IMG/VR virus record: IMGVR_UViG_2513237163_000001
Coordinates: 3,708-67,707 of that record
DNA length: 64,000 nucleotides
From: a virus
Reading direction: 5' to 3' (one strand)
Shown here: positions 1 to 16,603 of the stretch, in pieces
Layout: every line of letters begins with the position of its first letter
Position numbering within the stretch: position 1 is the first letter of the stretch
The notes under the pieces: model-generated
Seen by the model: only the letters and a program-made list of their open reading frames with translations
What the model was told of the DNA's origin: nothing
Database searches by the model: none
Position numbers and translations under genes: made by a program

Positions 1-3000
1 AACTTCGCGGCCTGGCGCAGGTTCATGCCCTTCGGCGCGACTTGCAGCTTGGATGCCTTGGCGAGGCGGCCCATTTCCGAGATAGCTAGGTCGTCCAGCG
101 ACTTGTCGACCGCGGCGCGGAACTCGCGGTAGAGGTCGATCTGCTCTTTGGTCAGGCCGAACTCGCGGCGCAGCGCATCATCGGAGTAGATCGTCTCGTT
201 CAGGGTTCCGTCGAAGATCGGCTTGGCAATCGCCTTGGCGTCGGCGGCGTCGCGTCGCACGGTGAACAACCCCTTGAATGCCTCGCGGGCGGTTTCGAGC
301 TTCGGTAGCAGGCCCTCGGCGCGGTCTGCTGCCTCGGAGGCATAGCGCGCCACGTCATCGATGTACTGCTGGGCGAGGTTGAAGACCTTGCCGAACCCTT
401 CCGGGTCGACCTGGGCCTTGTGGTACTGGGTGCCCACCGTCTTGTGCCACCAGCGGTTGAAGGTGCGTTGGCTGGTGAAGGTGTCGGATACCTGCTGGCG
501 CACGCGGTCGCGCAGGTTGGCCATAGCGTCTTGGTCGCCGGTGGCGGCAGCGCGGAACAGGGTCGGCTCATCGCCCGCCGGCTCGGCGCGGAAGCGGATG
601 TCCGGATTGGCGGGATCGAAGTTGCCATTGTTGCCGGTGGCGCTCTTGATCTGCTCGGGGCGGAAGGCAACCCATGCGTCCGCACCATACTCATCGCCGC
701 CCATCTGCTCGCCGAGGCTTTCATCGCCGCGGATCAAGATGCCATCGTGGCCGTCTTTGATGGCCCGGTCGCGGAAGGTGGCCGCCGACTCGTCACCGCG
801 CACGAAGCGCGCCGCGAACTCGCGCGCGCCGATCTCGACCGGGTTGGCGATAGACGCATAGACCGGCATCACGTTGCCGCCGGGCTTGTAGCCCATGCGA
901 ACGGGCCAAGTGGTCTGGTCGGGCTCTTGGCCGGCGAACAGAGCGGCCACCTGCGGCGACTCCGTCATGAAGATGCCAAGATCCGACGAACGATGGCCGG
1001 AGCCCTCGCGCGCTCGCCCGGTATCGAATTGCGAGAAATCGCGTTGGGTGCCGTGATACATCACCTTCGGCGAGCCGTCCGGATTTACCACCTTGCTATC
1101 GCCAAACCAGCGCCTGAAGGCCGCATCTTGCGTGGTGCCGCGGAATGCCGGGGCCGGCTGCCCACCGCGCGGGCTACCCTCCGGCCCACCGTTCTCCAGC
1201 CCCTTGCGGGCGGTGCGGATCAGGTGCGCCAGATCGGCGTCGTTGTACTCGGCCAGTTGGGTGAGCCCCAGCCGGCGCAGCGCGTCGCGGATCGCACCCA
1301 CGAATTCCTTCCAGCGCTGGCGCAGCGTCGGCTTTTCCTGAGCGATATGGGCGATCAACTCCTCGGACAGCAGGGCCTTGATGACTTCGTCGCCGTAGCG
1401 CGCCGGGTCGGCCTTCTGCGCCCGCACCATGCCGTCGATATAGCCCTCGAAGGTGTCACCAAAGCCGTATTGCTCGGCGATCGCGCGCAGCCCCTTGATG
1501 CCGCCCAGTTGGGCGAACAGCTTGTTCATGCGCCGGCCGACCTCGGCGCCCAGCAGTTGGCGGATACCGAAGTGCCCGACGAGTTCATGCAGCGCCGTCG
1601 TTTCGAGGTCTTCGAGGGTAGAATGGTTCGACAGGACTACATAGAGCTTGCCACCATGGAACGCGCCTTTCACGCCCTTCGGATTCAAGCCCGCCGCGCG
1701 CGCGTCGCGTTGCAGCGCATCGGGCAGATCTTCAAAAGACGCCGCGATCTCGACGCCGGGCATCTTGGCGAAGCCGGCGCGCAGGCGAGCAAACAGGTTG
1801 TCTGCGTCCGCACCGGAGACACGCGGTTCATTGTTGACGCTGGCGCCGCCGGCCGCGTTGATCCCGCCGTCCTGCCCGACTTCCTCCGGCGTTGACCGGA
1901 ACATGGCCACATTGCCGTCATCCGTCTCGCGCGTCTCGACCGTATCGAAGAAATGGTCGAAGCCCGCGCGGATCGCCGGGATTTCGCCGGCCGTTGGGTA
2001 CGGATACGCACCCTCGCGCGCGAATGCGTCTTCGCTGACGATGTTGGCCAGATAGTCGTTCGCGGCGCCCTGGTCCGCCAGCTTGGCAATGACATAGCTC
2101 TCGAACGCTCGCGCGGACATTTCTTCCGGCGTGGTCCAGTAAGCCTTTGAGCGCAGCTTGTCGAGTTCGCGCGAGCGCTCCCGCAGGGCTGTGTCGCTGA
2201 TGGCACGATTGACTCCGGCAAAGGCCGCGCGCATTTCCTCGCGCACACCCTCCCCGCCCTTCTGGTCGGCCGTCATCATGCCCAGGCGGTCGCCGCGCAT
2301 ACGGGAGAAGTAGCTGTCGAGCGAATGCCACCACTCATGCGCCAGCGAGCCGGCGCCGCTGCCCTTGGTCAGGTTGATGACCACGTTACCGCGCTCGTAG
2401 TGGGCGCTGCTCGGGTTCTTGCCACCGCTGCCACGTGCCCCGAAAGCGAGGCCAAGCTCGCCGTTCAGCGAGAGCGCGCGCGGCGGCACGTCCAGCACGC
2501 CGGCCAGGTCCATGAGCGCGTCATAGGCGTTGTTCAGGTCTTGCTGGCGGCGGGCGCCTTCGACGTAGTTGCCGAACTGCACGCCACGGAAGCCAAAGGA
2601 CTCCGCGAAGCGCTCGGGCGTCACGTCGGCGCCGTCGCGGTGGTCGCCGCCGACGCGCGGGGCGTTCTCAGCGTTGCGCACGTCTGGCGTTTCCTTCAGC
2701 TTGGCCAGCCTTTCCTCAAGCTCAGCTTGGTGCTCGGCGAGGTATGCACGCGCCTCCTGGGCCGTGGACAGGCCGGTATGCAGGCGCACCACCTCCTTGC
2801 CGATCTTCTTGCCGATGAAGAAACCTTTCTGGCCGCGGGTGGAGTAGATGGCGAAGCTGACCGCTCGCTTCTGCGGCTCCTCGTCCACCTTGGCCAGCGC
2901 CGCCTGCCTGAAGGCCTCGATTGCCTCTTCCTTGGTGTCACCCATGGCCAGCATGCGCGGCCAGTTGCCGAAGGCAGTAGCCTTGGCCTCTCGGTTGACA

Positions 3001-6000
3001 CTCCAGATCGTCTTTGCCGGGTCGTAGTGCTTGCCCTCAAAGATGCTGTAATGGCCAGCGCTGAGGGTCAGGCCCTTGAGCGACTTGGCGTGGCCGACGG
3101 CCAGATACAGATCGATGTTGTTCAGGATGTCACCGAGCCCATTCTGGCGGCGCGAGCCTTCCATGAACTCGCGGACAGCCTCCGGCTTGACGGTACCGGC
3201 AAGCAAATCCTCGGCGAACGCGCGCAGCGTCTCGACCTTCGAGACCCAACCGGACAGCTTCCAGCCTTTCTGCGGCTTGGTCGGGATAGCATCACGCGCA
3301 GCCCGAGCGAACGCAACCGCCCACGGATCGGCGCCGCCATCCAGCAGCTTGTTGTAGTCCGGATCGGGCCACGTCTTTGACAGCGGGTGCGCGGCGACAT
3401 CAAGGCCGTGCGCTTCCTTCATGGCGTCGGCGTAGGCTTGGGCGTAGTGCTTGCGGGCACCGGTCAGCACCTCGCCAAAGTCTTCGATCTTGCCTGGCTG
3501 GGGAGCGCGTGAGCCGTCGACAGCGGCGGGCTCAGGCTCCTCTTTGGCGGAAACCGGCTCCGGCTCGGTGGTAGCCGACGCGTCGGTGGATTGCGGTTCC
3601 GTGGACACACCCTCCGGCGCCGGCTCATCTCCCGCGGACTCTTGCGCGCGCCCGGCCTCCTTGGCCATCTGCTCGGCCCGGACCTCGGAATACGGGCGGT
3701 TGCCGTCCGGCTCGTGCTGGGCCAGATAGTCGCGCGCCGGCTGCAACTCGCCTTCGCCCAGCGCATCGAGCGCAGCTTGACCGGCATCGCGCGGCGCGCC
3801 AGCTTCGGCCAATCGCGTCACTTCCTTAGCCAAGAATGCGGCAGCCAGGCGCTGCGGCTCGCCGTCGACGTTGGAGCTTTGCAGCGGCTTGGGCTGGCGC
3901 AGCGGCTCGGCTGCGGTCTGCGCAGTGCCTGCCTCAGCCTTTGGCCTTACACTTTCCTCCGGCGTCGATTCCACTTGTTGCGGCGCGCCATCCTCGTCGA
4001 TTTCCTTGTCTGGCGCGGCCCTCAGGGTAGGTGATTCAACTTCCTGCGAGACGTCGCTCGACTTATTCGACTTCTGACGGATCTCGAACCGCTTCGTCCC
4101 GGCCGGGTTCACCACCTCATGGGTGTCGCTCAGGCCGTTCTCGGTAATGTGGCGCTCGGCGCGTGCCTTGGTGCCGTACCACTTGAGCGGCTTTTCGCTC
4201 AGTGCCGGCTGACCGTCGGCGGCGTCGCCTGCAGCAGGTACGCCGCTATCACCAGGTCGTACAGCCTCTCCGGCGGCATCGTCTGCGTCAGCAGTGCCTT
4301 GCGCAGCGTCTTCATGCTCCGCACCGGAATCTTCGTTACTCTCGACAGATGCTCCAGCGCCGCTATCGGTTCCACTTCCCACGCGAGATTCATTCGGTTG
4401 CTCCTGAATGCCGGTGACTTGCGGTGCCGGGGCAGCGCCGCTCTTGTCGCGCGAGGCGACGATGGCCTTGGCGATCTTCTCCGCACCACGCTTTTCGATC
4501 AGTTCGCGGGCAGCCTCGATGGTTGCCTCGGCCGTGGGCCCGTGCATCAGCGCCAAGCCGCTCGATACCTCGGAAAGCGTGTAGCGCGCTTCCGGGGCCG
4601 GGTTGTCCTTGAGCGACTCATGGACGATGAAATCGAAGTCCGGCAGCAGATCCTTGAGTTCAGTGACCGCGCGCGGGTGCTTGTCGGCAGGGATCGGCTG
4701 GAAGCCTTCCTCGGGGCCGCCGTAGAAGAAATACGTGGTCGCGGCCGGCGCCTCGGGCTCGTCCTGCGCCACCTCGGCCGGATTCACCGTCGCAGCACCC
4801 TCACCTGCGCGAATCGCCTTCGGGTCGATGGGCTGCTTGGTGTTGCCGTCCTTGAGCCAGGTCTTGAACTCGCCGATGGGCATTTCCGTGATGGCGCCCA
4901 AGCCCTGCCAGCCGTCCTCATAGCCGTCCAGATAGCCCTTGCGCGCGGCGGCCTCGGTGGTAAATCCGAGAAGGGCTTTATGCTCATCGAAGGCGCCGGT
5001 CTTCGGGTCGATCTGGTCGACTACGTAGACCTTCTTGCTCGTGGCGTCCGGGCCGATGAAGACGTCTACCGGGTCTTTGTCCGCCCCGTCGGTGCCCTCC
5101 ACATAGCCGTAGTGGTGCACCATAGTCGATTCCCAGGCGTTGCCGTCCGGATCGACGCCGCTGCGCGTGGCGCCCTTGGGGTTCTCGATGGCGATCGGCA
5201 GGCCGTGGAACTTGATGCGGGCCTTCTTGTAGTTGCCGTTTTCCTTCTGCGCCTCGGTCGGCTCGGTGTTCGTCTCGGCGGCTGCCGTGCTGACCTTTTT
5301 GGCCAACTCGTTCCGCGCGATCTGCATCTCGGCGGGCGTCAGGCGGCGAGCCTCGCCGGTCTCGGGATTGACCAGGTACGTGCCGTCGGCGCGTTTCTCC
5401 ACGGTCTGGCCGGCGGCGATCGCGGCGCGGATGGCCTCGCGGCGCTGGGCGAAGTCGCTCGGCTGTGCCGGTGCGGCCGGCGCGCGGGCGGGCGCGTAGG
5501 GGTCAAGCTCGTTCGGCGTGGAGGGGATAGCCTCGGGCGGAGCCATCAGGGCCTCGCGCAGGCCTTGGAAGCGGTCGATCTTGGCCAGTTCGTCCGCCGT
5601 CGGCGCGGTGTCACGGAATCCGGCGCGCGCCAGCTCGGCGGCGAAGCGCGGTTCGTGGTTCTCGACAGCCGGATCGGCCAGCACATCCGACAGGATGCGG
5701 GCGCGGTCCTGGCGCGAGCGCTCAGCGCGGTTGTGCTCGATGGCCTGCTGGATCTCGGCCAGACGTGCGGAGCCTTCGCGCTCGCGCATGGAGTCCTGGA
5801 ACAGCGTGCGCGCCTGGCTCTCCAGTGCGGCGAGGCTCCGGTCAATCTGGTCCGTCTTCACCAGGTCGGAGAATTCCTGCTCATAGCGGGCACGCTCGGC
5901 CATGTCGGCGGGCGCGGGCAGGCGGGCAGCGGGACGGCCCGGCAGGCGCGGCGCGGGCGGCGGCACTTCGCGCACCTCGCCCTCGATGGTGTTCAGGTCT

Positions 6001-7988
6001 TCATTCGGCAGGCCGGGGCCGGCGGCGCGCTGCTTCGGTGCCCGGGTCGGAACGAGCGCCCCACCCCCGCCAGCATCATCGCCGCCGCCCGGCGGCATGG
6101 TGAAGTTGCCCGCGCCGGAGAAAATGGATTCAAGCTGCGTCAGCGCCTGCTCGCGCAGGTCCGCGCGCGCTTCCGGATTGGTGGCCACCGTCAGCGCATA
6201 GAGCGCCTCATCGCGCAGAGTCGGATCCTTGCCCTGCATGAAGGTCGGGAAAGCCTCGCGGATCTTGTCGATGCGCGCGGTGAACGGGTCGACTTCCTCG
6301 GCGGGCTGCGCCGCAGCGCCCGGCGGCACCACACCATCCGCCGGCGGCACTGCACCCGGAGCCTCTGCGCCGGGCGCCACGCCGGGGACTACCGTCGGCT
6401 GGGCCGGTGCATGGCCGGCCGCGCGCGACAAGACGCCGCCTGCACCACCCATCGGACCGCCCACCATGGCGCCGCCGGCGAAGTTGCCGAACGAGCCGCG
6501 CGTCACATCCTGACCCACCGGTCGGCCAAGGGCAAAGTTCTCGCCCATGGCCTGGCCCACGCCTTCAGAGACTTCCTGCCCGCCCTCACCCACCGCGCCA
6601 GCCGTCGCGCCGACCACGCCGCGCACGGTCGGGCGCTTGCTGATACTGCCCAGCACGGCAGACACGCCCTTGTGTGCGATCAGGTCTTCGATGATCTTGG
6701 CATTGAAGGCGCCACCGGCGGCGCCCATCAGGCCGGCGCCCATGCCGGCGTACTGCGCTGCGGCGTTCTCCACGGCGTTGCGTGCCGTGCGCGCGTCGCC
6801 GGTCTTGTCGAAGGCCTCACGGTAAATCGGCACATCGGCCATGAGCTGGTCATGGGTCATCTTGCTGAGCGTCTGGCCGACGTTCTGGCGTGCATCCGAT
6901 GCGGCATTGCCGCCGGTCATCAGGCCACCGGTGGCAGCGCCGGTCACCTTGGCGGCAGCCGACGCAGCAGCAGCACCCGCGGCATCCCCTGCGGCGGCGA
7001 GGCGCGCGGCACGTGCGGCCGGGCCGAGCGCGGGCAGGATGCTGGGCGCCAGCGAGCCCAATCCGTTCGCCGCGGTCATCAGCCAGCCGGACACGCTGTC
7101 CGGCGCCTTCCACGTTTCCGGCTTCATCAGGTCGCCGTCGAATCCATCCTGACGCGCCAGCTTGCCGCCCTCAGTCATGCCGCTGCGCAGCGCCGCGGCC
7201 GGCTTCGTGAGCGGGTTGAAGCCCGCGTAGTCCTCGGTGCCAGTGAGGTGGTTGGCCGCGGCTGCCGCCACCTCACCGGCGCCGCCGAGCATGTCGCCCA
7301 GGCCGGACACAGCCGAGGCGCCGAACTCGCGCGCCAAGTCGCCCACCGTTGCGCCAGCCGCGCGCGCGGCGTCCGTGCGACGGGTATCTCGCTCGAAGTC
7401 CGCCGGCGAGGCGCCGGGCTGCTCGGCAGGATTGAAGTAGCTGACCGATGCTGGGCGCTCCTTGGGCGGGTTCAGCGTGCCGCGGATGCGCTTGACGGCC
7501 TCAGCCGCTGCGACCATCTTGTCGACGTATGCTGGATCTTCCGCATAGCCGCCCGCCTTGAGCGCCGTGGCGAACCGACGCGGATCGGAGCCGGAGCCGA
7601 TGGCGCCGGGATACTTGCGCCCGATCAGGCCGGTATAGTCGTTGCCGAAGTCATCCAGGCTGGCGTACTGGCGGTACCGGTCACGGCTGCCGGTCATGTT
7701 GTCCGTTGCCGCAGCGCCCTTGCCCGAAAAGTCCTTGATGTTCCCGAGATTGTTCGTGCCCGGGATGACGCTCTTGCCCCAGCCGGTTTCCAGCCCCCAC
7801 TGCCCGATCAGCGCATCGGGATCGACATCCAGATCGGCGCCGACGCGCTCGGCCAGAGCGCTGTTGTCGCGGATGAAGTTCGAGCGGGCGTCGCCGTCGG
7901 ATTGGGTGCCGGCCGGCGCGGAGGCGGGCGCAGCCCCACCCAACGCGCGGAGTTGATCGAGGAAATTACCGTTGGAGGCTTGGTCCAT
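1..7988 (-). CDS. Giant polyvalent internal-virion/ejection protein (partial, >2660 aa, runs off window start)
   Basis: ATG at 7988 (MDQASNGNFLDQL). Frame spot-checked as the same at 5279 and 1139; it is absent from the ORF track because its stop lies outside the window. Motifs in order: GH73/FlgJ-like muramidase (LIGQWGLETGWG..NNLGNIK..YAEDPAY), Gly/Ala-rich hydrophobic region, InPase (PTEAQKENGNYKK..IAIENPKG..YGYVEGTDGADKDPVDVF), LPD5-like (VWPDPDY), FGFRGVQFGNY..HEWWHSLD and LPD1-like (YWTTPEEMSARAFE), zincin HELVGH, ART-PolyVal (MYHGT..GIFMT..GHDGILI..EQIKSATGNNGNFD). Confidence 0.85.
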   Translation of the reverse strand, partial: MDQASNGNFLDQLRALGGAAPASAPAGTQSDGDARSNFIRDNSALAERVGADLDVDPDALIGQWGLETGWGKSVIPGTNNLGNIKDFSGKGAAATDNMTGSRDRYRQYASLDDFGNDYTGLIGRKYPGAIGSGSDPRRFATALKAGGYAEDPAYVDKMVAAAEAVKRIRGTLNPPKERPASVSYFNPAEQPGASPADFERDTRRTDAARAAGATVGDLAREFGASAVSGLGDMLGGAGEVAAAAANHLTGTEDYAGFNPLTKPAAALRSGMTEGGKLARQDGFDGDLMKPETWKAPDSVSGWLMTAANGLGSLAPSILPALGPAARAARLAAAGDAAGAAAASAAAKVTGAATGGLMTGGNAASDARQNVGQTLSKMTHDQLMADVPIYREAFDKTGDARTARNAVENAAAQYAGMGAGLMGAAGGAFNAKIIEDLIAHKGVSAVLGSISKRPTVRGVVGATAGAVGEGGQEVSEGVGQAMGENFALGRPVGQDVTRGSFGNFAGGAMVGGPMGGAGGVLSRAAGHAPAQPTVVPGVAPGAEAPGAVPPADGVVPPGAAAQPAEEVDPFTARIDKIREAFPTFMQGKDPTLRDEALYALTVATNPEARADLREQALTQLESIFSGAGNFTMPPGGGDDAGGGGALVPTRAPKQRAAGPGLPNEDLNTIEGEVREVPPPAPRLPGRPAARLPAPADMAERARYEQEFSDLVKTDQIDRSLAALESQARTLFQDSMREREGSARLAEIQQAIEHNRAERSRQDRARILSDVLADPAVENHEPRFAAELARAGFRDTAPTADELAKIDRFQGLREALMAPPEAIPSTPNELDPYAPARAPAAPAQPSDFAQRREAIRAAIAAGQTVEKRADGTYLVNPETGEARRLTPAEMQIARNELAKKVSTAAAETNTEPTEAQKENGNYKKARIKFHGLPIAIENPKGATRSGVDPDGNAWESTMVHHYGYVEGTDGADKDPVDVFIGPDATSKKVYVVDQIDPKTGAFDEHKALLGFTTEAAARKGYLDGYEDGWQGLGAITEMPIGEFKTWLKDGNTKQPIDPKAIRAGEGAATVNPAEVAQDEPEAPAATTYFFYGGPEEGFQPIPADKHPRAVTELKDLLPDFDFIVHESLKDNPAPEARYTLSEVSSGLALMHGPTAEATIEAARELIEKRGAEKIAKAIVASRDKSGAAPAPQVTGIQEQPNESRVGSGTDSGAGASVESNEDSGAEHEDAAQGTADADDAAGEAVRPGDSGVPAAGDAADGQPALSEKPLKWYGTKARAERHITENGLSDTHEVVNPAGTKRFEIRQKSNKSSDVSQEVESPTLRAAPDKEIDEDGAPQQVESTPEESVRPKAEAGTAQTAAEPLRQPKPLQSSNVDGEPQRLAAAFLAKEVTRLAEAGAPRDAGQAALDALGEGELQPARDYLAQHEPDGNRPYSEVRAEQMAKEAGRAQESAGDEPAPEGVSTEPQSTDASATTEPEPVSAKEEPEPAAVDGSRAPQPGKIEDFGEVLTGARKHYAQAYADAMKEAHGLDVAAHPLSKTWPDPDYNKLLDGGADPWAVAFARAARDAIPTKPQKGWKLSGWVSKVETLRAFAEDLLAGTVKPEAVREFMEGSRRQNGLGDILNNIDLYLAVGHAKSLKGLTLSAGHYSIFEGKHYDPAKTIWSVNREAKATAFGNWPRMLAMGDTKEEAIEAFRQAALAKVDEEPQKRAVSFAIYSTRGQKGFFIGKKIGKEVVRLHTGLSTAQEARAYLAEHQAELEERLAKLKETPDVRNAENAPRVGGDHRDGADVTPERFAESFGFRGVQFGNYVEGARRQQDLNNAYDALMDLAGVLDVPPRALSLNGELGLAFGARGSGGKNPSSAHYERGNVVINLTKGSGAGSLAHEWWHSLDSYFSRMRGDRLGMMTADQKGGEGVREEMRAAFAGVNRAISDTALRERSRELDKLRSKAYWTTPEEMSARAFESYVIAKLADQGAANDYLANIVSEDAFAREGAYPYPTAGEIPAIRAGFDHFFDTVETRETDDGNVAMFRSTPEEVGQDGGINAAGGASVNNEPRVSGADADNLFARLRAGFAKMPGVEIAASFEDLPDALQRDARAAGLNPKGVKGAFHGGKLYVVLSNHSTLEDLETTALHELVGHFGIRQLLGAEVGRRMNKLFAQLGGIKGLRAIAEQYGFGDTFEGYIDGMVRAQKADPARYGDEVIKALLSEELIAHIAQEKPTLRQRWKEFVGAIRDALRRLGLTQLAEYNDADLAHLIRTARKGLENGGPEGSPRGGQPAPAFRGTTQDAAFRRWFGDSKVVNPDGSPKVMYHGTQRDFSQFDTGRAREGSGHRSSDLGIFMTESPQVAALFAGQEPDQTTWPVRMGYKPGGNVMPVYASIANPVEIGAREFAARFVRGDESAATFRDRAIKDGHDGILIRGDESLGEQMGGDEYGADAWVAFRPEQIKSATGNNGNFDPANPDIRFRAEPAGDEPTLFRAAATGDQDAMANLRDRVRQQVSDTFTSQRTFNRWWHKTVGTQYHKAQVDPEGFGKVFNLAQQYIDDVARYASEAADRAEGLLPKLETAREAFKGLFTVRRDAADAKAIAKPIFDGTLNETIYSDDALRREFGLTKEQIDLYREFRAAVDKSLDDLAISEMGRLAKASKLQVAPKGMNLRQAAK

Positions 7989-8006: not shown

Positions 8007-10367
8007 TCAGATACGGCGGCCGGTGTAGATTTCGATCGCTCGGCGATCGTCGGGAGTGAGCTTGCTCAAGTAGCTGGGGTCGGCCTTGACGATCTGCGCC
8101 AGGGTCTCAGCGGCCTGCGGTTGCTGGCCACTCCGGAAGGCCTGCAGGGAGCGGGTAAAGTTGCTGCTGCGCAGCGACCTACCGTAGTCGCCGACGGCGC
8201 TGGCGACGGACGAGGCTGCGCCCTTGACCTGATCCCACACCGGTCGGCCAGGCTCCTCGATGCCATATTTCTTGGCTGACTCCAGTTCCTGCGCGGTGTA
8301 CTGGGGGGCGGCATTTCCAGCGGGGGCCGGCGCAGGCGCGGGGGCAGCGGACTTCGGTGTTGCCGCATCCGCCCCGTACTTATTGACCATATTCATGACC
8401 TGCAGGCTGCGCTGCGAGAGTTGGTCGCCACCAGCCGCTGCGGTGCGCACTTGGTCGACGGCTGCCTTGTTGCCGGCGTTCTGCGAAAGGGTCCGGAACA
8501 AGTCGGGGTTCGTCTTGGCGAAGTTCTGCATGAACCCAGTTTCCTGCTGCTTGATCCAGGCGTCATCGATGCCGCCCACCACCTTGCCGTCCTTGTCCTT
8601 GCGGATGAGGCCGGCGGGATTGACATTGCGCTGCAGGTAGTAGGTGTTGCCGTCCTCGTCGCGCGCACCGATGTCCCACGTGCCATCGGCGCTGAGAATC
8701 GGCAGCCGGCGATAGTTGGCCTGGCCGGACACCGGGATTTCCTCGCCGGCATCCGCTCGAGCGATGCCGCGGGCCATCGTCGCGGCCATGGCGCGGCCGC
8801 CCTCGGTCTGCGCCAGTTGCGGGTTGTTCTCCACGATCTGGTTGGCGTAGGTGTAGGCCGATGGGCCCCACGGCGCCACGGCGCCATCCACAGTGGCGTA
8901 ATTCTTGAAGAAGTCGTCTTGCTTGAACGGCGTGGCCTCGCCCTTGCCGCCGCGCGAGCCCGAACCAGATCCCGAGCCGCCCTGCCCGCGCATCAGCGCG
9001 GTAAGCATACGGTCCTCGCGCGCAGCAGCGGCGGCCCGGTCTCGCATGTTGTTGTTCCGCGTGACCTCGTCCAGTTGCGCCTGGCGCTGACGGTCCATCA
9101 TCCACATGCGCGTGAGCTGGTTGTCTTCCTTGCCCTGGTTGGTCAGCCACGTCGTCAGCAGCTTCGGATCGGACGCGGCAATCATGGCGCCCGCGGCCTC
9201 GCGCTCATCTTTGAACACGCGCGGCTGGCCGTAGACCGCCCCGGTCTTGTCGTTGACCATGGACAGCTTGATGCCGCCGCCGGTGCCGTCCGAATTCGTC
9301 GGCAACACCTCACGCTTGACCGAGTGCCCGTCAGGCAGCAGGTTGTAGATGTGATAGATGTCGTCGTAGTTGCCGTTCATGTAGGCGTTCATCGCCGCGC
9401 TGGAGTACTTGCGCGCGATCACGTCGGCCATCGCCTTGTTGGCTTCGTCGGCAAGGCCCAGGCTCGCTGCCTTCTCGATGTACTTGCGCTGGTAGTCGTC
9501 AAGGCTGAACTTGCGCGGCGCTAGCTCGGCAGGCTCTGCGGAGGCAGGCGCTGCGGCCTGACTCGGCACGGGCGTGGGGGCAAGCTCAGCCGGCGCGGCG
9601 GCTTGGCTCGGCGCGGGCGCACCACTGCCAGCAGCGGGCACATACATGCGCGCCTGGTCCTCATGCAGCTTGTCCGCGTAGGCCGTCGCACGCTCGGGGG
9701 TATCGAACACGCCAAGGTGCTTGCCGGTGCGCTGGAACTGCTGGATGGCCTCCTCATCTGACAAGATGCGGCTGCCGTCGTCGGCGACGGTCGGAATCAG
9801 GTATTCCTTGCCATCCATGCCCACCGACATCGAGCGAACGGTGCTGATCGAGCCATCGGCATTCTTGACCACCGGCCGCTTGGCGAGGTCGATGTTGCCC
9901 GCCTCCAGCAGCCCGTCATTACCCGCTGCCGGCGCGCCTGCATCCATACTGGTCTTCACCATACGCGGCGCGTTGTCGGCGAAGCGCTCGGGATTCAGCA
10001 AGGCCTCCATGCCTGCGCCGACACCGCGGCCCGGCGCGGGATTGTCGACCTGTGCCGGCATCGCCGCGCGCGTGGCGGCATCCATCGGGCGCGTGTCGGG
10101 CGGCCCGGCGGTCGCCTCATTGAAGGCGTCAGCGTAGGACGTCGGCGCCGAAGGTCCGGCCGCGGGCGCGGGCGCAGCCACTGGGGCCGGCGCAGCAGCC
10201 GGGGCCGGCGCGCTCTCGCCTGGCGCCGCGTCCTGTGCCATTTGATCCGCCGACCACTTCGCCAGTTCTTCTTGCCGACGGCGCTTTTCGCTCTCCTGAT
10301 ACTGCTGGGCAAAGTCCGCACCAGCGCCCATGCCCTGAAGGAAGCCCGTACCGAATCCGCCTGCCAT
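8007..10367 (-). CDS. Internal virion / DNA-ejection protein (786 aa)
   Basis: Start refined to [13 protein letters not shown] (ATG 10367, GAGGGG SD). Pro/Ala-rich linkers; position between pilot protein and giant polyvalent protein. Confidence 0.7.
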
Positions 10368-10368
10368 A

Positions 10369-10713
10369 TCAAGCCCCCTCAAGGAATTGGAATCCGGTGC
10401 CGAAGCCAGCATCGGTCGACGCGCTCATCGGCGCCGGAGCGTCTGGCGCCGCGGTCTCGGGCGCAGGAACAGCCGGTGCTGCGGCCGTCGTCGGGCTGTC
10501 GATCTGCGTGCCCTGCGGGTTGGACATATCGACCTTGCTCACCTGCGGCGTGCTCGCATCACCGGCCTGGCCCTTCATGTAGCCGGCCATCTGCTTGGCC
10601 AAGTCCTGCTGCGCGCGCAGTTTCTGCGCCTCCTGATACTGCTTGGCCAGGCTCATGGAGGCATTCATGCCTTGCAGGAAACCGGTACCGAAGCCACCTG
10701 TGTAAAGAGCCAT
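10369..10713 (-). CDS. Small internal virion protein (114 aa)
   Basis: Start refined to [16 protein letters not shown] (ATG 10713); shares its N-terminus with the downstream protein. Confidence 0.65.
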
Positions 10714-10715
10714 GG

Positions 10716-11456
10716 TCAGTCCTCGTTGATCGTGAGTTCGCGGTCGAGGTGCGCCACATGCGGGCGCAGCGCGTCGGCCACGAGGGTCAATTTGCGTTGG
10801 TATTCGGCATACTTGGCCGGGTGGTGCTTGGCGAGGTAGGCAGCGCGGCCCTCGTCCCACCAAGCCGTGCAGGTCATGCAATCGAGCGCGCCCTTGCAGC
10901 CTTCCGCGTAGAAGCGCGGCGCCTCGACGCCCATGGCGTCCAGCGCCAACATCACCTGCTCGGTGGTCCAGCTTTGGATGGGGTACAGCAGTTCGATCCC
11001 GTCATGCACGTCACCGGATCGCGTGACGGGCGCGGCATAGTCGGTGTCGCGCTGACCGCGCACGATGAGCGTGATGCCGTCTGCCTTCATGCGCGCCTGC
11101 ATCGGCAGCATGATCGTGCGCGCGCAGCAGTCGTAGCGGTCCTGCAGTCGCGGGCCACCCGTGTGAATCCGCCCGATAGTCGTCGCGCTCGTCGGGATCA
11201 GGTCGGAGGGCAAGCCGAATTCGGCACGCACTTCCCCCACCACGCCATCCACTAGCGCGAGGTGCGGCACGAGGTTGGCGATCTCCCGTACCAATTTCTG
11301 CGTCTCCGGGAAGTCGTCGCCGGTACGCAGGTGGTAGACCGTCATTGCAGCCCAATACGGGCGCAGCAGGTGCAGTGCACAGAGCGAGTCCCGCCCGCCC
11401 GAGAACTGGAAGGCGATGCGCTCGTGGCGCGCGAAGGCGGCGGCGATGTCCGTCAC
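10716..11456 (-). CDS. PAPS/APS-reductase-family PP-loop protein with CC-x81-CxxC motif
   Basis: FSGGRDS PP-loop, RGQR, YPIQSWT, CC at 110-111 and CMTC at 193-196; GTG start overlaps upstream TGA. Confidence 0.85.
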   Translation of the reverse strand: MTDIAAAFARHERIAFQFSGGRDSLCALHLLRPYWAAMTVYHLRTGDDFPETQKLVREIANLVPHLALVDGVVGEVRAEFGLPSDLIPTSATTIGRIHTGGPRLQDRYDCCARTIMLPMQARMKADGITLIVRGQRDTDYAAPVTRSGDVHDGIELLYPIQSWTTEQVMLALDAMGVEAPRFYAEGCKGALDCMTCTAWWDEGRAAYLAKHHPAKYAEYQRKLTLVADALRPHVAHLDRELTINED

Positions 11457-12325
11457 AGCAGCAACGCCCCCGCGCCGACGGCAGCACCTGCCATGCTTCC
11501 CATCGACTGGTTATTGGACGAGGCAGCCTGCACACCGAGGTTCATCGCGCCGACGGTGGAGTTGTTCGCGCTGATCGCCGTATTGGCGGCGTTGATCCCC
11601 ATGCCGTAGGCGCCGGACACAGAATTGCCCGCCGCCAGGGTGTTGCCGATGCCGGCACCAGAGGTGCCCGCCGCCGCCGAGCCTGCGCCGACCGCGCTGG
11701 TCAGGTTCTGGCCGGCGGTATTGGTCATGTTCCGACCGAACGACGCTGCACCGGCCCGCAGGGCGATGCCCTTGTCGCGCGCCGCGGTGCGGGCCCCGGT
11801 CATGCCGGCCGCCGTCTGCGCCGCTTGGGCAATGTCCGTCATCCGGTTGGCGCTGGCGAACTTACCCGAGTTCGGGTTGACGCCCATCGCGGTCAACTGG
11901 CGGTTCGCCTGCTCGCGCTGGGAATCGAACGACGCCGTCATGTCCGCGCGTGCGGTGCCGGCCTGCTGGTTCTGGTCGGCGGCGGAACCGTAGTCCATCG
12001 CCTCCTGCACCATCTGCTTCTCGACGGGCTGGAAGGTGTCCTTGTAGTAGTCCCACTGCTCGTCGGAGCGGTCCTGCGCCTGCCGGGCCAAGTCCATCTG
12101 CTGGCGCGAGGCTTCCGACGAGATGTCCAGCGAGTTCTTCAACGACGGCTGCAGGTCGGCGTATTGCTGCTTTTGGAAGGCCAGATTGTCATCGGCGGAT
12201 TGCTTGGCCAACTCGGCGGCCCGCTCGTTGGAAGCCGCAATGGCGCTGGTGTCCGGGGCGCTATCGCTGCAGCAGTACAGCGTGAAGCGCGGGGCGAGGA
12301 GGCGCAGAAGATTGGAAAGGATCAT
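11453..12325 (-). CDS. Pilot / DNA-ejection protein (P22 gp7-like position, 290 aa)
   Basis: ATG 12325 with GAGGA SD; leader MILSNLLRLLAPRFTLYCCSDSAPD, coiled-coil middle, Gly/Ala-rich hydrophobic C-terminus (MAGAAVGAGALLL). Confidence 0.65.
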   Translation of the reverse strand: MILSNLLRLLAPRFTLYCCSDSAPDTSAIAASNERAAELAKQSADDNLAFQKQQYADLQPSLKNSLDISSEASRQQMDLARQAQDRSDEQWDYYKDTFQPVEKQMVQEAMDYGSAADQNQQAGTARADMTASFDSQREQANRQLTAMGVNPNSGKFASANRMTDIAQAAQTAAGMTGARTAARDKGIALRAGAASFGRNMTNTAGQNLTSAVGAGSAAAGTSGAGIGNTLAAGNSVSGAYGMGINAANTAISANNSTVGAMNLGVQAASSNNQSMGSMAGAAVGAGALLL

Positions 12326-12329
12326 GGAG

Positions 12330-12806
12330 CTATCCTCGTGCGGCCTTTTCGGCCTCAAGGTTGAGCAGGTACCGATCGAACCCCTCCGCATGCCAATGCC
12401 GTCGCGCCTCAGGCAGCGCCTTGCGCGCGTGCTCGAAGCCGCCCACCAGGAACAGCGACTTGACGAACACGTTGATGTAGTCGGAGCGCGTGATGAAGGC
12501 GATTTCCTTGTCGGTCCTCGACTCGGTCGCCTCCATGGCATTGGCCGCCATCCAATTCAGGATGGCGTTGTCAATGAGGGGGTGCAGTTGCGCGAAGTGC
12601 GCGCGGTAGAAGGGATTGGCGGGGAGCAGGACCAACGCGCTGCGGAACGCTCGGTGGATGTCCTCGTCGGAGACGGGCTTGTCCCGGTCAATCAGGTCGT
12701 CCCAGGCATGGAGGACGTCTCGGAACAGCAGGTTGAAGGCGACGGCCGCCTCATTGCCGAGCAGGAAATGCTCGAAGAACTCTTTGATGCTTGAGAATGC
12801 GCGCAT
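12330..12806 (-). CDS. DDxxD-motif protein, isoprenoid-synthase-like fold suspected
   Basis: HAWDDLIDRD aspartate-rich motif in an all-helical 158-aa protein. Confidence 0.6.
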   Translation of the reverse strand: MRAFSSIKEFFEHFLLGNEAAVAFNLLFRDVLHAWDDLIDRDKPVSDEDIHRAFRSALVLLPANPFYRAHFAQLHPLIDNAILNWMAANAMEATESRTDKEIAFITRSDYINVFVKSLFLVGGFEHARKALPEARRHWHAEGFDRYLLNLEAEKAARG

Positions 12807-12879: not shown

Positions 12880-13065
12880 TCAGGGCCCCTCCTCCACCTT
12901 CGGGTAGCGGTCCTTGACGGCCTTGATCGGCTCGTAGAATTCCGGCACCTTGGGAAACTCGCCGCGATCCATGGCGTGCCACAGCGCGTCAAGCTGGTCT
13001 TCCACGGGGAGATAGGCGGCTTTGCGCAGCGGCCCATGGTCGGGGCGGTGTCGGATGACTTTCAT
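12880..13065 (-). CDS. Small tail-fibre-associated protein (61 aa)
   Basis: MKVIRHRPDH..QLDALWH..VKDRYPK; coupled ATGA overlap with upstream gene. Confidence 0.6.
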   Translation of the reverse strand: MKVIRHRPDHGPLRKAAYLPVEDQLDALWHAMDRGEFPKVPEFYEPIKAVKDRYPKVEEGP

Positions 13066-13421
13066 GGAACGCTCACAGTGAAAGTGGCGTCGAGAACAGG
13101 GAAGGCCTCGACGGTGATCGTATGCTCGCCCGCCAGCAGGTCCAACTCGACAGCCGACTCGTCGTGCCCATACCGCTGGCCGTCGATGATGATGGTGCAT
13201 GGCACCGGCAGGCCGGTAAGGATTGTGCCGATCAGCGTTGCGGTGTTCTCGGGGCGCTCTAGGATTTCGCCGCCCGCGACGTAGTGGCGCAAGTCATCGC
13301 ATGCACCCACAATCACCGACTCGCCCGGATGGTTGGCTTGGATCTGCACCATCTCTTCAGGGCAGGAGCCATAGCGCAGAATTCGCCCGGCTCCGTTGTA
13401 GACCGCGTATTGCGAATTCAT
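13062..13421 (-). CDS. Tail-fibre assembly-like protein (119 aa)
   Basis: MNSQYAVYNGAGRILRYGSC; directly downstream of tail fibre, ATGA-coupled. Confidence 0.6.
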   Translation of the reverse strand: MNSQYAVYNGAGRILRYGSCPEEMVQIQANHPGESVIVGACDDLRHYVAGGEILERPENTATLIGTILTGLPVPCTIIIDGQRYGHDESAVELDLLAGEHTITVEAFPVLDATFTVSVP

Positions 13422-14950
13422 CGCTTCGTCTCCAGTAGTACGATTGAACGTTTGGCACTGGTGAAAGTGGCGCCTGTTGATCGAAACATCAGACTGTAAG
13501 TATGTGACCCACCACCGGGAGTGTCTGACAGCACCGCTGCAACTCTTGTCCAAGGGAGGCCGGCTGGATCGAGAAAGTTCTCAGCCCATATATTGGTTCC
13601 ATCTCTATCTAGCCACACCTCAATGATGTCGTCCGTCGCCGTCAAGCTGAAACTAATGAACACTGCGATAGGGGCGCCGGACGAGGTGATTGTGCAAGAC
13701 GCTTCGTTGAAAGTGCCTGAGCCGCGAGTCGATTCTGCCGCAGAGTACCCACTGACCGGGATCGTCACAGCATTGCCGGCGATCTTCAGGGTATTAACCT
13801 CTGCATCCCCGATCTTGGCGTAGGTGATCGCCGCGTCCGCAATCTTGGCCGTGCCGATATTTGCGTCGGCGATCTTCGCGGCAGTGACCTGCGCATTGCC
13901 GATCTTGGCATTGGTGATAGCGCCGTCGGCAATGTTGGCGGTGCCTACAGTGATGGTGCCGAGGTTGCCAGAGATCGCCGACAGCGACGTCACGCTGATC
14001 TTGTCCGCCGTGATGGCGCCCGCCGCCACCTTCCCCGCCGTCACCGCGCCAGCCGCCAGCACATCCGTGGTGACCGACCCCGCGGCGAGCTGCCCCGCGG
14101 TGATGCTGTTCGCCACCAGCTTATCGGCGGTGATGGTGTTGGCCGCGATCTTGTCGCCGGTGATTGTGCCCGCCTCAATCCGCGCCACATCGATGAAGCC
14201 CGCCGTGATCTTCTCGGCCGAGAGGTCCGCAATGCGCGCGTCATCGATGGCCGCCAGCCCGATCATGGCCCTGCCGATCGTGCCCACCTTGATGAAGGCG
14301 TCTCGGATGTACGTCCCCGCGGGCACCAGGTAGCCGTTGATGACGGTTGGCTCCGCCTGGATGACAAACGGCGTGGTGGAATCCCCCGTGAGGATGTCCA
14401 TCACATAGCCCGGGTCCAGGCTCGTCTGCCCCTGCGTGCCGGCCACGGCGTTGTAAGGCCCGACCACATTGGCCCGCGACACGGCGCGCACCCAGTAGTA
14501 GAGCGACCGCCCGCCCCCGACCGAATCCGCATAGACCTTTCCCGGCGTCATCCCGACGCGCGAGGCCAGGCCGAGGTCATCCACCTCTGCGCGCCAGATC
14601 TCCGTGTAGGCGTGGTTCGGGTAGGTGGGCTGCGTCCAGGTCAGCAGGATGCTGGCCAGCCCGCCGGTGGCCTCCAAGTCCGTGAGCGCAGGCGGCGGCG
14701 TGAGGTCGCCGAGGGCGTCAGGGTCGATGGAGATGCCAGGCAGCCCGCCGGGGCCGATGCCGCCCTGCCCCGGCAGCTTGACCGTGAAGCCATCCATGCC
14801 CTGCAGCATGCGCAGCGTGACCCCCATGTCCAGCTGATCGCCCCGCTGGCCATTGCGCACTTCCACCGCCTCCTTGAGCGCCGAGAGGAACCCGCGCAGC
14901 GCGGGCGAGGCATCCGTCGGGATTGCGCCGATCGAGGGGTTCTTAGACAT
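13418..14950 (-). CDS. Tail fibre / host-specificity protein (510 aa)
   Basis: Fn3-like segment (LLTWTQP..YTEIWRA..YYWVRAVS) followed by ITADKI/AKIAD short repeats typical of phage fibre shafts. Confidence 0.75.
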   Translation of the reverse strand: MSKNPSIGAIPTDASPALRGFLSALKEAVEVRNGQRGDQLDMGVTLRMLQGMDGFTVKLPGQGGIGPGGLPGISIDPDALGDLTPPPALTDLEATGGLASILLTWTQPTYPNHAYTEIWRAEVDDLGLASRVGMTPGKVYADSVGGGRSLYYWVRAVSRANVVGPYNAVAGTQGQTSLDPGYVMDILTGDSTTPFVIQAEPTVINGYLVPAGTYIRDAFIKVGTIGRAMIGLAAIDDARIADLSAEKITAGFIDVARIEAGTITGDKIAANTITADKLVANSITAGQLAAGSVTTDVLAAGAVTAGKVAAGAITADKISVTSLSAISGNLGTITVGTANIADGAITNAKIGNAQVTAAKIADANIGTAKIADAAITYAKIGDAEVNTLKIAGNAVTIPVSGYSAAESTRGSGTFNEASCTITSSGAPIAVFISFSLTATDDIIEVWLDRDGTNIWAENFLDPAGLPWTRVAAVLSDTPGGGSHTYSLMFRSTGATFTSAKRSIVLLETKR

Positions 14951-16562
14951 TGGCCAACTCCCCGATGCTGTTGGCGACAAAGACCGCCGTGACCGGGTTG
15001 GTGCCGGTCAGCTCAATCTCGCAGATGCTGTAGCGCCGCGGGGATGGCAGCTTGAAGGGCTCGCCGTTCGTGACGCTGCGCTCGTGCAGCAACGTGCCAT
15101 CGGCAAAGAGGCGGAACGTGACCGGGTAGGCCGTGGCCTTGACCTGCGCAACCGCAAAGTTGGACGGCTTGAGCAGCAGGAACTTCTTCGAGCGCCAGAG
15201 GTAGGTGAGCAGCGCCGCCCCGCTGGCGGCCCAGCGCTTGACCGTGTTTCCGACGGCGAGATACAGCCCGCCGCTGCGCAGATCGAAGTACCCTGCGGTG
15301 GCGTACAGGTCGATCTTGGTGAGCGGCGCGCGGCTGTCCTGCGGATCGAGGATGAATCCGCCCTGCACCGTGCCGGCGTCGTAGAAAGCGAAGTACTTCC
15401 CATCCCAGCCGTAGGCGTGGATCGAGGCCGGGTTGAGCGCGTCCCAGTCCTCCTGCGACAGCAGATCCTCGGTGAGCACCCGGGCCGTGCCGTTGCCGAT
15501 CAGGGCCAGGCCGTTCGGCGCGGCATAGATGACACCCGCATCCACCTTGACGATGGAGCGCGCCGAGATGCACGAATGCGGGAACGACTGGATCGGCTGG
15601 CCGGATAGCGAGGTGGTATCCGTGCCGGTGTAGGCGTAGGGGAAGCCATCGGTCAGCACGATCAGGGTCTGCTCGACCACCGCGCCGCCGATGATCTTGT
15701 GCGGCACGGAATCCCGCAGGCTCGAAGGCCACGCATAGCCCTTGTATGGCTTGCAGGCGCACACGTCCGAGCCAGAGAACCCGACCATCCCGCCATTGGG
15801 ATAGGCCAGCAGCCCGAACATATCCGCCGGCGGCATGTCGTTGTCGATCGCCGAGAGCGTCTCGCCCAGCGCAGTGCCGGCAACGTTGTCGGTAAAGGTC
15901 GTCTGCGCGGCCGGGATCTCGGCGACGAACAGCAGCGCACCGTTGTCCGCGCTTCGGTAGAGCCGCTTCGTCGTGATGTTGAACGCGCCCGACGGCGGCA
16001 GGTCCAGGCCCGACAGATCGACGGTCTGGCCCTCGTAGACGGAGACCACATTCGATGCCAGGCTCGGTGTGCCCTCCTCGCTCCAGCCGGTCACAAAGGT
16101 CATCACGTAGACGCGCGACTGCTTGACAGTGGTGGTCACGCCACCGGTGCCCTCGACAGCAACCGGGGCGGTATCCGGCGCCGGCACGCCGAGGGTGTAC
16201 GCCGCGACGGGATACCCGGTGCCGCCGGTGAGCGCCAAGGCCGAATCCGTGACCTTAGGCACCCCGTCACCCGTGAAGTACGTGCGCTCGGTGGTGTCGC
16301 CCGCCACCTGCCCGCGTACGGCATTGACGACCGTGGTCCAGTGGAACCAGAAGGTCGCATCGCCTACCACGTCCTGACCAAAGCGGTAGATTGACTTGAT
16401 CGGCCCAGGCTTGGAGAGCGTGGCAATGTCGGCCGTGCCAGCCCAGCCGCGCAGGTCGCCGCGATTGAAGCGGCAGTTCTGCGCAATCTGCGCCGCGTTG
16501 TCAGGCAACTCGGTCGGCTCGAACAGCGGCATGATACCGGTTGGGACTTTGATAGCGAGCAT
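14943..16562 (-). CDS. Tail hub/stabilisation protein (P22 gp10 / tubular protein B-like)
   Basis: 539 aa beta-rich protein in tail cluster; ends with the WRSKKF..EIELTG motif typical of this class. Confidence 0.65.
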   Translation of the reverse strand: MLAIKVPTGIMPLFEPTELPDNAAQIAQNCRFNRGDLRGWAGTADIATLSKPGPIKSIYRFGQDVVGDATFWFHWTTVVNAVRGQVAGDTTERTYFTGDGVPKVTDSALALTGGTGYPVAAYTLGVPAPDTAPVAVEGTGGVTTTVKQSRVYVMTFVTGWSEEGTPSLASNVVSVYEGQTVDLSGLDLPPSGAFNITTKRLYRSADNGALLFVAEIPAAQTTFTDNVAGTALGETLSAIDNDMPPADMFGLLAYPNGGMVGFSGSDVCACKPYKGYAWPSSLRDSVPHKIIGGAVVEQTLIVLTDGFPYAYTGTDTTSLSGQPIQSFPHSCISARSIVKVDAGVIYAAPNGLALIGNGTARVLTEDLLSQEDWDALNPASIHAYGWDGKYFAFYDAGTVQGGFILDPQDSRAPLTKIDLYATAGYFDLRSGGLYLAVGNTVKRWAASGAALLTYLWRSKKFLLLKPSNFAVAQVKATAYPVTFRLFADGTLLHERSVTNGEPFKLPSPRRYSICEIELTGTNPVTAVFVANSIGELANV

Positions 16563-16572
16563 AGGCAGCACC

Positions 16573-16603
16573 AAAGAAAAAGCCCCGCTCAGTGGCGGGG
16601 CTT
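16573..16603 (-). terminator. Rho-independent terminator
   Basis: AAGCCCCGC-CACTGA-GCGGGGCTT followed by U-tract on minus strand. Confidence 0.75.

Follow-up and report, generated by a model that had tools for sequence, protein, structure and literature searches.

Genomic Organization of the Locus

Here we describe a pair of genes in a 64,000 nucleotide (nt) stretch of virus DNA (positions 3,708 to 67,707 of IMG/VR record IMGVR_UViG_2513237163_000001; hereafter the window, numbered from its first letter), in which a gene for a 158 amino acid (aa) protein carrying a DDLID motif (the DDxxD protein) lies directly upstream of the gene for a 290 aa virion/ejection protein (the pilot). Both are part of the late virion operon, on the minus strand, of a Bcep22-type (Lessievirus/Gervaisevirus-like) prophage. 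The DDxxD gene (12330..12806, minus strand) encodes a predicted all-helical protein that matches phrog_21390, whose function is unassigned, over residues 8-131 (E 3.4e-25). The product of the pilot gene (11453..12325, minus strand) matches phrog_8003, a virion structural protein family (E 9.9e-44), and is 34% identical to Bcep22 gp70, which is annotated as virion-associated. A gene for a 246 aa PP-loop protein resembling phosphoadenosine phosphosulfate (PAPS) reductases follows (10716..11456, minus strand; PF01507, E 1.4e-11). A preliminary description of this DNA, drawn from the letters alone, had noted these three genes, with HAWDDLID in the DDxxD protein and a 17 aa leader followed by CCSDSAPD in the pilot. 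Each of these features was recovered in our analysis, the three genes on the minus strand and HAWDDLIDRD at residues 33-42.

The three genes are closely packed. The pilot open reading frame (ORF) spans 11453-12541, but its real start is the ATG at 12323-12325. A GAGGA ribosome-binding site, as read from the sequence, lies 7 nt upstream (12333..12337, minus strand), at a point that still belongs to the DDxxD gene, at its 3' end. The TAG stop codon of the DDxxD gene (12330-12332) is separated from the pilot ATG by a 4-nt gap, and the two genes are translationally coupled. The GTG start of the PP-loop gene overlaps the pilot stop codon, and this pair is translationally coupled as well. The DDLIDRD codons (D36-D42; 12681..12701, minus strand) fall at the C-terminal end of predicted helix 2 and form a putative metal/diphosphate-binding motif. 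In the pilot, the 17 leader codons (12275..12325, minus strand), which are missing in leaderless homologues, are followed by the CCSDSAPD codons (residues 18-25; 12251..12274, minus strand), which contain the Cys patch and an AP.D motif and mark the presumed mature N-terminus.

The Pilot and Its N-terminal Cysteines

The pilot is a virion protein as judged by annotation and by mass spectrometry of homologues only, the homologue in phage JC1 (gp64) having been detected in virions by this method (PMC9144972). Its sequence is laid out as a leader, the Cys-Cys patch, the APD motif, a Gln/Ala-rich helical region, and a Gly/Ala-rich hydrophobic tail. Cys18 and Cys19 are the sole cysteines of the protein, and the two presumed co-ejected proteins encoded further along the operon contain no Cys in 3463 residues, which sharpens the significance of the pair retained in the pilot. 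With its only Cys residues at positions 18 and 19 of 290, the pilot does not have the form of a CaaX-type substrate, in which the Cys lies four residues from the C-terminus. Homologues of the pilot show two layouts around this patch. Some start with MC, MCC, or MGC exactly at the position of Cys18 and have no leader, and BLAST alignments to the leaderless homologues starting with MCC begin at their Cys2, which corresponds to Cys18. Others have a leader of their own that ends in a hydrophobic residue followed by Tyr, Phe, His, or Trp, directly before a Cys/Gly-rich patch. In the pilot itself, residues 8 and 13 of the leader are Arg, and the sequence at its end reads T-L-Y-C, placing Tyr at position -1.

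The host lipoprotein pathway (Lgt/Lsp/Lnt) was considered as a route for modification of these cysteines and rejected, as the pilot has neither a lipobox of the form [LVI][ASTVI][GAS]C nor a Sec-type signal peptide and many homologues (MCC...) have no leader at all. Leader removal by another route is plausible in this phage by analogy, since the 20-residue leader of P22 gp7 is cut by the host protease OpdA (PMC8402733) and the host of this prophage encodes an M3 peptidase. The loss of an N-terminal leader from P22 gp7 had been cited in the preliminary description, and the P22 record indeed annotates 20 N-terminal residues as removed by host OpdA. We would like to note that the pilot is not assignable to the P22_gp7 family (PF25688): it has no PF25688 match, and an hhalign comparison of the pilot alignment with gp7 was non-significant.

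The DDxxD Protein Family

The DDxxD family comprises 1023 clusters (50% identity) at E <= 1e-3 among 1.84 billion proteins, and it is almost wholly metagenomic. When three divergent family members were used as tblastn queries against 50,697 phage records, Achromobacter phage CF418P1, whose pilot starts with MGC, was the only cultured carrier found. Of 299 further genomes sampled from the class of the host, 2 carry the gene. The DDxxD motif is invariant in the family alignment. Among 241 family representatives with a mean identity of about 40%, D36 and D40 are conserved in 100%, D42 in 99.6%, and D37 in 97.5%, followed by R107 (98.7%), E92 (95%), N64 (95%), and Y146 (94%). The strongest conservation in the family thus falls on polar residues, and this conserved polar core looks like a ligand or metal site. 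The 158 aa protein itself has no Pfam match at E <= 0.1. Residues 84, 108, and 110 covary with the class of partner encoded downstream (Cys-type versus Cys-free N-terminus), and the protein in the window, with N84, S108, and Y110, belongs to the Cys-type subfamily.

Pairing of DDxxD Genes with Cys- and Gly-Rich N-termini

To survey the genomic context of the family, we used 80 IMG/VR loci retrieved with the DDxxD family alignment. In all 80 of these loci, each having room for it, a same-strand gene lies directly downstream of the DDxxD gene, in most cases at a spacing of -35 to +4 nt, and the downstream products have Cys- and/or Gly-rich N-termini. A hidden Markov model (HMM) of the pilot matches only about one third of these partners, the others belonging to further families of 200-1143 aa. 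What the DDxxD gene pairs with is therefore a type of N-terminus, spread over more than one protein family.

Clustering of the DDxxD proteins at 60% gave 33 clusters, four of which had no clear partner, leaving 29 that were scored. A patch Cys is present in 16-17 clusters, and Cys falls at positions 2-4 in 12 of the 29, compared with a background of 4.7% (binomial P = 3e-9). The preliminary description had proposed examining whether DDxxD genes co-occur with pilots bearing an N-terminal Cys, and they do so far above chance. Furthermore, the N-terminal Cys is the only Cys of the protein in 16 of 18 Cys-type partners checked. The pairing is thus conserved across very diverse phages, far beyond chance, and we consider it very probable that the function of the 158 aa protein is directed specifically at the N-terminal region of the downstream gene product. 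A strict rule equating DDxxD with Cys was nevertheless rejected, as some DDxxD partners are Cys-free and some pilots with MC-type starts are found behind genes of the GNAT superfamily (both described below).

Natural fusions of the DDxxD protein were also found. One joins an N-terminal Stf0 sulfotransferase to the DDxxD protein and is followed by a gene whose product starts MCMSSS, and two join the DDxxD protein to a C-terminal class I S-adenosylmethionine (SAM) methyltransferase and are followed by genes whose products start MCCGNE and MCCDNE (fusions at L115:5001-6137, L117:1248-2411, and L120:70-1257, each upstream of an MC or MCC gene). Additionally, the Atlas contains a 76-member viral cluster of sulfotransferase (Stf0/Sulfotransfer_3)::DDxxD fusions. 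Many partners have the motif P-[DE]-[YW] just past the patch.

A second partner family, 350-1143 aa in length (e.g., in loci L006, L012, L052, L067, and L079), was noted to carry the motif [IL]P[ED][YW]A[KR]PY about 15-25 residues past its Cys/Gly patch. Several pilot homologues have AP.PDY in its place.

Replacement of the DDxxD Gene by GNAT Genes

The preliminary description had stated that other podoviruses place a GNAT acetyltransferase at the position of the DDxxD gene, and this holds for Bcep22 and for Ralstonia phage RPZH6, each of which has an acyl-CoA N-acyltransferase in the same slot. The Bcep22-like cassette (gp69 acyl-CoA N-acyltransferase, gp70, and PAPS reductase-like gp73) has the same gene order and coupling as the locus in the window, with an orthologous pilot and PP-loop gene. 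It differs in having an upstream GNAT of phrog_4470 and a Lys/Gly patch in the pilot in place of Cys. The Bcep22-type pilot is 49-54% identical to the pilots found behind DDxxD genes in loci L011, L020, and L024. For the L024 pilot, which starts with MCC, the identity to Bcep22 gp70 is 54%, in an alignment that starts just after the patch. The flanking PP-loop gene is common to both sides of this swap.

To extend the comparison, we surveyed 19 IMG/VR loci found with the RPZH6 GNAT as query, together with Bcep22 and RPZH6. A pilot homologue with a Lys/Gly patch lies downstream of the GNAT in all 18 of the IMG/VR loci that could be read there, and the motif GGKGG is present in 17. Examples of these patches are MGGKGGGD, TLEGGGKGGGG, and QGGGKGGGG, with KKDAGD in Bcep22 and a Lys/Gly patch also in RPZH6. 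No partner in any of the DDxxD loci has a GGKGG motif. Lys/Gly patches therefore track one GNAT family, and Cys patches track either DDxxD proteins or other GNATs. Further combinations include an MGKG pilot behind a phrog_4470 GNAT and an MGWLGGD pilot behind a DDxxD protein. One pilot homologue (L147:1952-2497) with a hydrophobic, Gly/Ala-rich N-terminus (MSFVAVAIGG) has a short tail fibre/adhesin gene (phrog_12032) upstream, and the notion that every pilot has an upstream enzyme was accordingly rejected.

In the course of this survey, the RPZH6 GNAT (ORF77; L003:9468-10025) was seen to be chimeric, with residues 1-106 matching the phrog_4470 GNAT and residues 118-174 matching HNH endonuclease families. 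From its sequence, the 3' end of this acetyltransferase gene looks to be interrupted or replaced by a homing endonuclease-like segment.

The preliminary description had noted that the PP-loop gene follows the pilot. It does so in the window, but PP-loop genes (a further example is L143:2748-3419) follow pilots only in the Bcep22-like clade, where the gene upstream of the pilot may be a GNAT, a GNAT of about 200 aa, or a DDxxD gene, so that the PP-loop gene also stands beside GNAT cassettes. On this distribution, an obligatory three-gene system with the PP-loop enzyme was rejected. By the criterion for CysH (a PF01507 domain plus a C-terminal tail with the catalytic Cys), the PP-loop protein of the window has the domain, and its cysteines lie at positions 26, 110, 111, 187, 193, and 196 of 246, with none near the C-terminus. 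A contribution of the phage acyl carrier protein, also raised earlier, gained nothing from our analysis: no link to the cassette turned up, although no search was aimed at this protein.

Comparison with P22 Genes 14 and 7

An accessory gene coupled to an ejection protein gene is a known kind of arrangement, as in P22 genes 14 and 7; what is new here is the uncharacterised accessory family. P22 gene 14 (151 aa; DUF2824, 'head morphogenesis') lies directly upstream of gene 7 and has the same slot, size, and coupling as the DDxxD gene. P22 gp7 is also built like the DDxxD partners, with a 20 aa leader, a Gly-rich KGGKGG patch, a Gln/Ala-rich helical middle, and a Gly-zipper tail, and the GGKGG patch is common to P22 gp7 and the pilots of Bcep22-type GNAT cassettes. 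In contrast, P22 gp14 has no sequence similarity to the all-helical DDxxD protein and instead resembles the GNAT family of phages, though only weakly (105 columns in register, with an hhalign P of 0.003). The pilot of the window likewise differs from P22 gp7 in that the two could not be aligned, PF25688 gives no match, and a Cys-Cys patch stands where gp7 has Lys and Gly.

Literature searches covering P22 gp14, DUF2824, and the lipidation or acylation of ejection proteins gave nothing relevant, and no paper was found that ties these accessory genes to the N-terminus of the pilot. For decades P22 gene 14 has had no clear role, and little is understood of how the ejection proteins of short-tailed phages enter and cross the host envelope. 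Both questions are touched by the unit described here, which is widespread and consists of genes for an accessory protein and a gp7-like pilot: the fold of the accessory protein (GNAT or helical DDxxD, in some cases joined to a sulfo- or methyltransferase) goes with the reactive residue at the N-terminus of the pilot (Lys or Cys).

Predicted Fold of the DDxxD Protein

The AlphaFold2 model of the 158 aa protein consists of eight helices (pLDDT 96.4). In VIA-align comparisons, two independent models were closest to prenyl-diphosphate synthases, with moderate scores, and the top match was the small (regulatory) subunit of heteromeric prenyl-diphosphate synthases (HEPPP_synt_1/HexPS-like). Outside the family, the nearest neighbours by protein language model were polyprenyl_synt, DUF2600, HEPPP_synt_1, and HexPS-like proteins, all at low scores (0.77-0.79); as neighbours by ESM features, HEPPP_synt_1 and HexPS-like proteins were weak (0.77). 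Other searches were null: in the PDB, Foldseek had no match below an E of 1, nothing beyond the family and its own sulfotransferase fusions was recovered by Foldseek from AFDB clusters or by the Atlas shape search, and a profile search of PDB sequences yielded nothing relevant, only one spurious designed protein. Comparison of the family alignment with 31 IspB sequences by hhalign was not significant (probability 0.3%, P 0.17), and the best local alignment, with the same non-significant P of 0.17, put DDLID on the second Asp-rich motif of IspB. No nucleotide-binding fold was among the structural matches, and no gene for a large subunit of a prenyl-diphosphate synthase is found near the DDxxD gene in the window. 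The isoprenoid-synthase fold suggested in the preliminary description is thus favoured by the direction in which VIA-align and the language model neighbours point, but the scores are moderate and the Foldseek, Pfam, and hhalign searches give it nothing. On the predicted models, we consider it likely that the 158 aa protein distantly resembles one half of the class I isoprenoid-synthase fold; such likeness is not proof of homology or of function.

In members of PF00348, a chain of about 300 aa carries a first Asp-rich motif (FARM) and, about 130 residues away, a second one (SARM). Compared with catalytic trans-prenyl-diphosphate synthases (IspB/FPPS type; HepS/HexA; MoeN5), the DDxxD protein is half as long, has one Asp-rich motif where they have two, and gives no Pfam or hhalign signal. 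The substrate inferred for the DDxxD protein is moreover a protein, whereas these synthases use isopentenyl diphosphate. The small subunits of prenyl-diphosphate synthases, which are most like the DDxxD protein, are themselves not known to carry DDxxD. One metagenomic relative, P0185 (315 aa), is a tandem DDxxD-DDxxD protein in which both copies have WDD[LI]IDKDK, with the motifs 165 residues apart; it is the only relative seen with two motifs, and their spacing resembles that of FARM and SARM in full-size prenyl synthases. The existence of this tandem form hints that the DDxxD unit may act as a dimer, recreating the two-motif layout.

Possible Roles of the DDxxD Protein

Taken together with the pairing, the predicted fold leads us to favour, tentatively, a reading in which the DDxxD protein, related to class I (trans-)prenyl-diphosphate-binding enzymes but half their size and stand-alone, acts on the N-terminal patch of the pilot. 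For the Cys-type subfamily, the most specific form of this reading, held just as tentatively, is transfer of a prenyl or other lipid group to Cys18 or Cys19. The 17-residue leader would be removed, as OpdA does for P22 gp7, and in leaderless homologues Met excision would expose the same patch. The DDxxD protein would then bind Mg2+ and a diphosphate-bearing donor and move a hydrophobic, probably isoprenoid, group onto Cys18/Cys19, so that the ejected pilot would carry a membrane anchor while building the DNA conduit; where a GNAT fills the slot, it would act correspondingly on a Lys/Gly patch (GGKGG). A covalent modification is favoured because unrelated folds of transferase type fill the slot and their type tracks the available nucleophile, and because the DDxxD family places an invariant core resembling a metal site on a scaffold like that of prenyl synthases. 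Since the GNAT counterpart in JC1 (gp63) is not found in virions, in which the pilot gp64 is present (PMC9144972), the protein in this slot is probably non-structural. More generally, these observations suggest that the tip of a DNA-injection protein may be chemically altered, or escorted, by means of the phage's own gene products.

Two known systems offer partial parallels. In Bacillus, ComQ, a polyprenyl-synthase-like protein of about 300 aa, prenylates a Trp of the ComX precursor, and its gene lies just upstream of comX. Similar to that pair, the window has a class I-like DDxxD gene directly upstream of, and in some loci overlapping, the gene for a presumed peptide substrate with a removable leader. 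ComQ, however, is full-size and a recognisable polyprenyl_synt homologue that modifies a Trp in a secreted pheromone, whereas the partner here is a 290 aa virion protein and the candidate nucleophile an N-terminal Cys. Eukaryotes use N-terminal dual lipidation signals (MGC and MxCC), with N-myristoyltransferase being a GNAT, as well as CaaX prenylation. The partner N-termini described here (MGC, MCC, MC, and MGGK) are alike, and the candidate writer is a GNAT or a protein resembling prenyl enzymes; in contrast to eukaryotic lipidation, the setting would be the bacterial cytoplasm, the site is an N-terminal Cys and not a C-terminal CaaX box, and the DDxxD protein has no similarity to CaaX prenyltransferases.

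Several results weigh against such a modification. No tie to isoprenoid synthases emerged at the sequence level from Pfam, Foldseek, the PDB profile search, or hhalign; the protein has a single Asp-rich motif (DDLID, residues 36-40) in 158 aa and does not qualify as a PF00348 member; and it is half-size with fold-comparison scores that are only moderate. Twelve clusters (about 40%) pair with Cys-free N-termini, including the MSGGGG type, a leader followed by GGGG, and the hydrophobic MPNP..AI.G type. Conversely, MCC, MCK, and MCS pilots occur behind GNAT-like proteins of about 200 aa, and an MAFLC pilot occurs behind an Acetyltransf_1 GNAT. In P22, Edman sequencing of mature gp7 read Lys-Gly-Gly-Lys-Gly, unblocked and apparently unmodified, and deletion of the gp7 leader costs little (PMC8402733). 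The lipidation proposed in the preliminary description is therefore borne out in the direction of the fold, in the co-occurrence with Cys, and in the pairing of GNATs with Lys patches, and is held back by the half-size protein, its single motif, and the share of Cys-free partners. Its broadest version, a set of cytoplasmic phage lipidation systems in which a half-size and probably dimeric enzyme resembling class I prenyltransferases S-prenylates the pilot Cys and GNATs of sister phages (P22 14/7 included) N-acylate the Lys of GGKGG, in both cases supplying a lipid anchor for a DNA channel through the envelope, we regard as doubtful.

Nearly as likely as a modifier of the N-terminus, though itself possible at best, is a non-catalytic escort or assembly factor. 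It would bind the pilot by its flexible or membrane-active N-terminus inside the producing cell, so that the pilot stays soluble and does no harm until it is passed to the procapsid, as gene 14 may do for gp7. The small helical proteins that chaperone type III secretion translocators would be comparable, and the likeness of the DDxxD protein to an enzyme fold would be ancestral or coincidental. The position, size, and coupling of P22 gene 14 upstream of gene 7 suit this role, as do the great diversity of the partner N-termini (Cys-free and hydrophobic ones included), the unmodified N-terminus of P22 gp7 (PMC8402733), the absence of the JC1 counterpart from virions, the single Asp-rich motif with its moderate fold scores, and the best structural match being a non-catalytic, partner-binding synthase subunit. 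On the other hand, the 241 representatives share about 40% identity on average, yet four Asp, an Arg, and a Glu are conserved at nearly 100%, a pattern that looks like a metal or ligand site and not like a chaperone surface. An escort also leaves unexplained the sulfotransferase and methyltransferase fusions, and the other occupants of the slot are transferase folds, from several GNAT families, with a type that varies together with the partner nucleophile. The fusions and the PP-loop gene beside the pilot also give scope for a reading in which the DDxxD protein is a catalytic or substrate-docking subunit for some other chemistry, which binds the patch and/or a nucleotide-type diphosphate or phosphosulfate donor and works with the PP-loop/Fe-S protein here and with the fused sulfo- or methyltransferase elsewhere, resulting in a non-lipid modification such as sulfo-, thio-, or methyl- addition. 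The recurrence of both kinds of fusion (the sulfotransferase kind forming the 76-member viral cluster), the coupling of a PAPS-family gene to the pilot in the window and its clade, and the P-[DE]-[YW] motif right after the patch in many partners all point this way. Yet most DDxxD family members are stand-alone, the PP-loop gene occurs in a minority of DDxxD loci and also beside GNAT-type cassettes, and the structural matches contain no nucleotide-binding fold, making this chemistry rather unlikely.

Two further explanations separate the DDxxD protein from the patch, and we consider both improbable. In one, the Cys pair acts alone, for example as inter-subunit disulfide staples in the oxidising periplasm once the pilot is ejected, or in metal binding, and the DDxxD protein has an unrelated job. 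A Cys-Cys pair retained in otherwise Cys-free ejected proteins would be reactive in the periplasm, and about 40% of DDxxD partners need no Cys; however, the tight coupling of the DDxxD gene to such N-termini in diverse contexts and fusions would go unexplained, as would the covariation of the DDxxD subfamily with the partner N-terminus. In the other, which we place marginally lower still, the DDxxD protein is a host-directed accessory protein unrelated to the pilot that mimics the small subunit of a prenyl-diphosphate synthase and binds or redirects a host isoprenoid enzyme such as IspB or UppS, altering the supply of quinone or undecaprenyl phosphate. The top structural match is a regulatory small subunit, and the GNAT and PAPS reductase genes of Bcep22-like phages have been treated as morons (PMC9144972). 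A moron, however, would not be expected to remain, through 33 clusters and several families of partner, in an overlapping same-strand position ahead of a single class of virion gene, or to covary with the partner N-terminus.

If the favoured modification of the pilot N-terminus is correct, it would add an extra maturation step to phage assembly and define a new enzyme family of more than 1000 sequence clusters with no characterised member, which might offer a minimal, possibly ancestral, half-domain model of class I prenyl enzymes. Should the modification prove to be prenylation, it would be the first protein prenylation system in the bacterial and phage world outside of peptide pheromones. 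If there is no modification, the family would still be a conserved, dedicated escort for membrane-active injected proteins.

Other Genes of the Operon

The remaining genes of this part of the operon also lie on the minus strand. Downstream of the PP-loop gene, an ORF at 8007..10412 encodes an 801 aa putative ejection protein and is syntenic with Bcep22 gp74, annotated as virion-associated, and an ORF at 3..7988 that runs off the window edge encodes a giant DarB-like/polyvalent ejected protein of more than 2662 aa and is syntenic with Bcep22 gp75; these are the two Cys-free proteins mentioned above. Upstream of the DDxxD gene lie a small gene with a phrog_18216 match (13062..13553), a tail fibre gene (13418..14980), and a gene for a phrog_511 protein (14943..16574). 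The 163-codon frame at 13062-13553 overlaps the tail fibre frame, and its phrog_18216 match spans only residues 45-161, so the true start is probably an internal Met that gives a product of about 119 aa.

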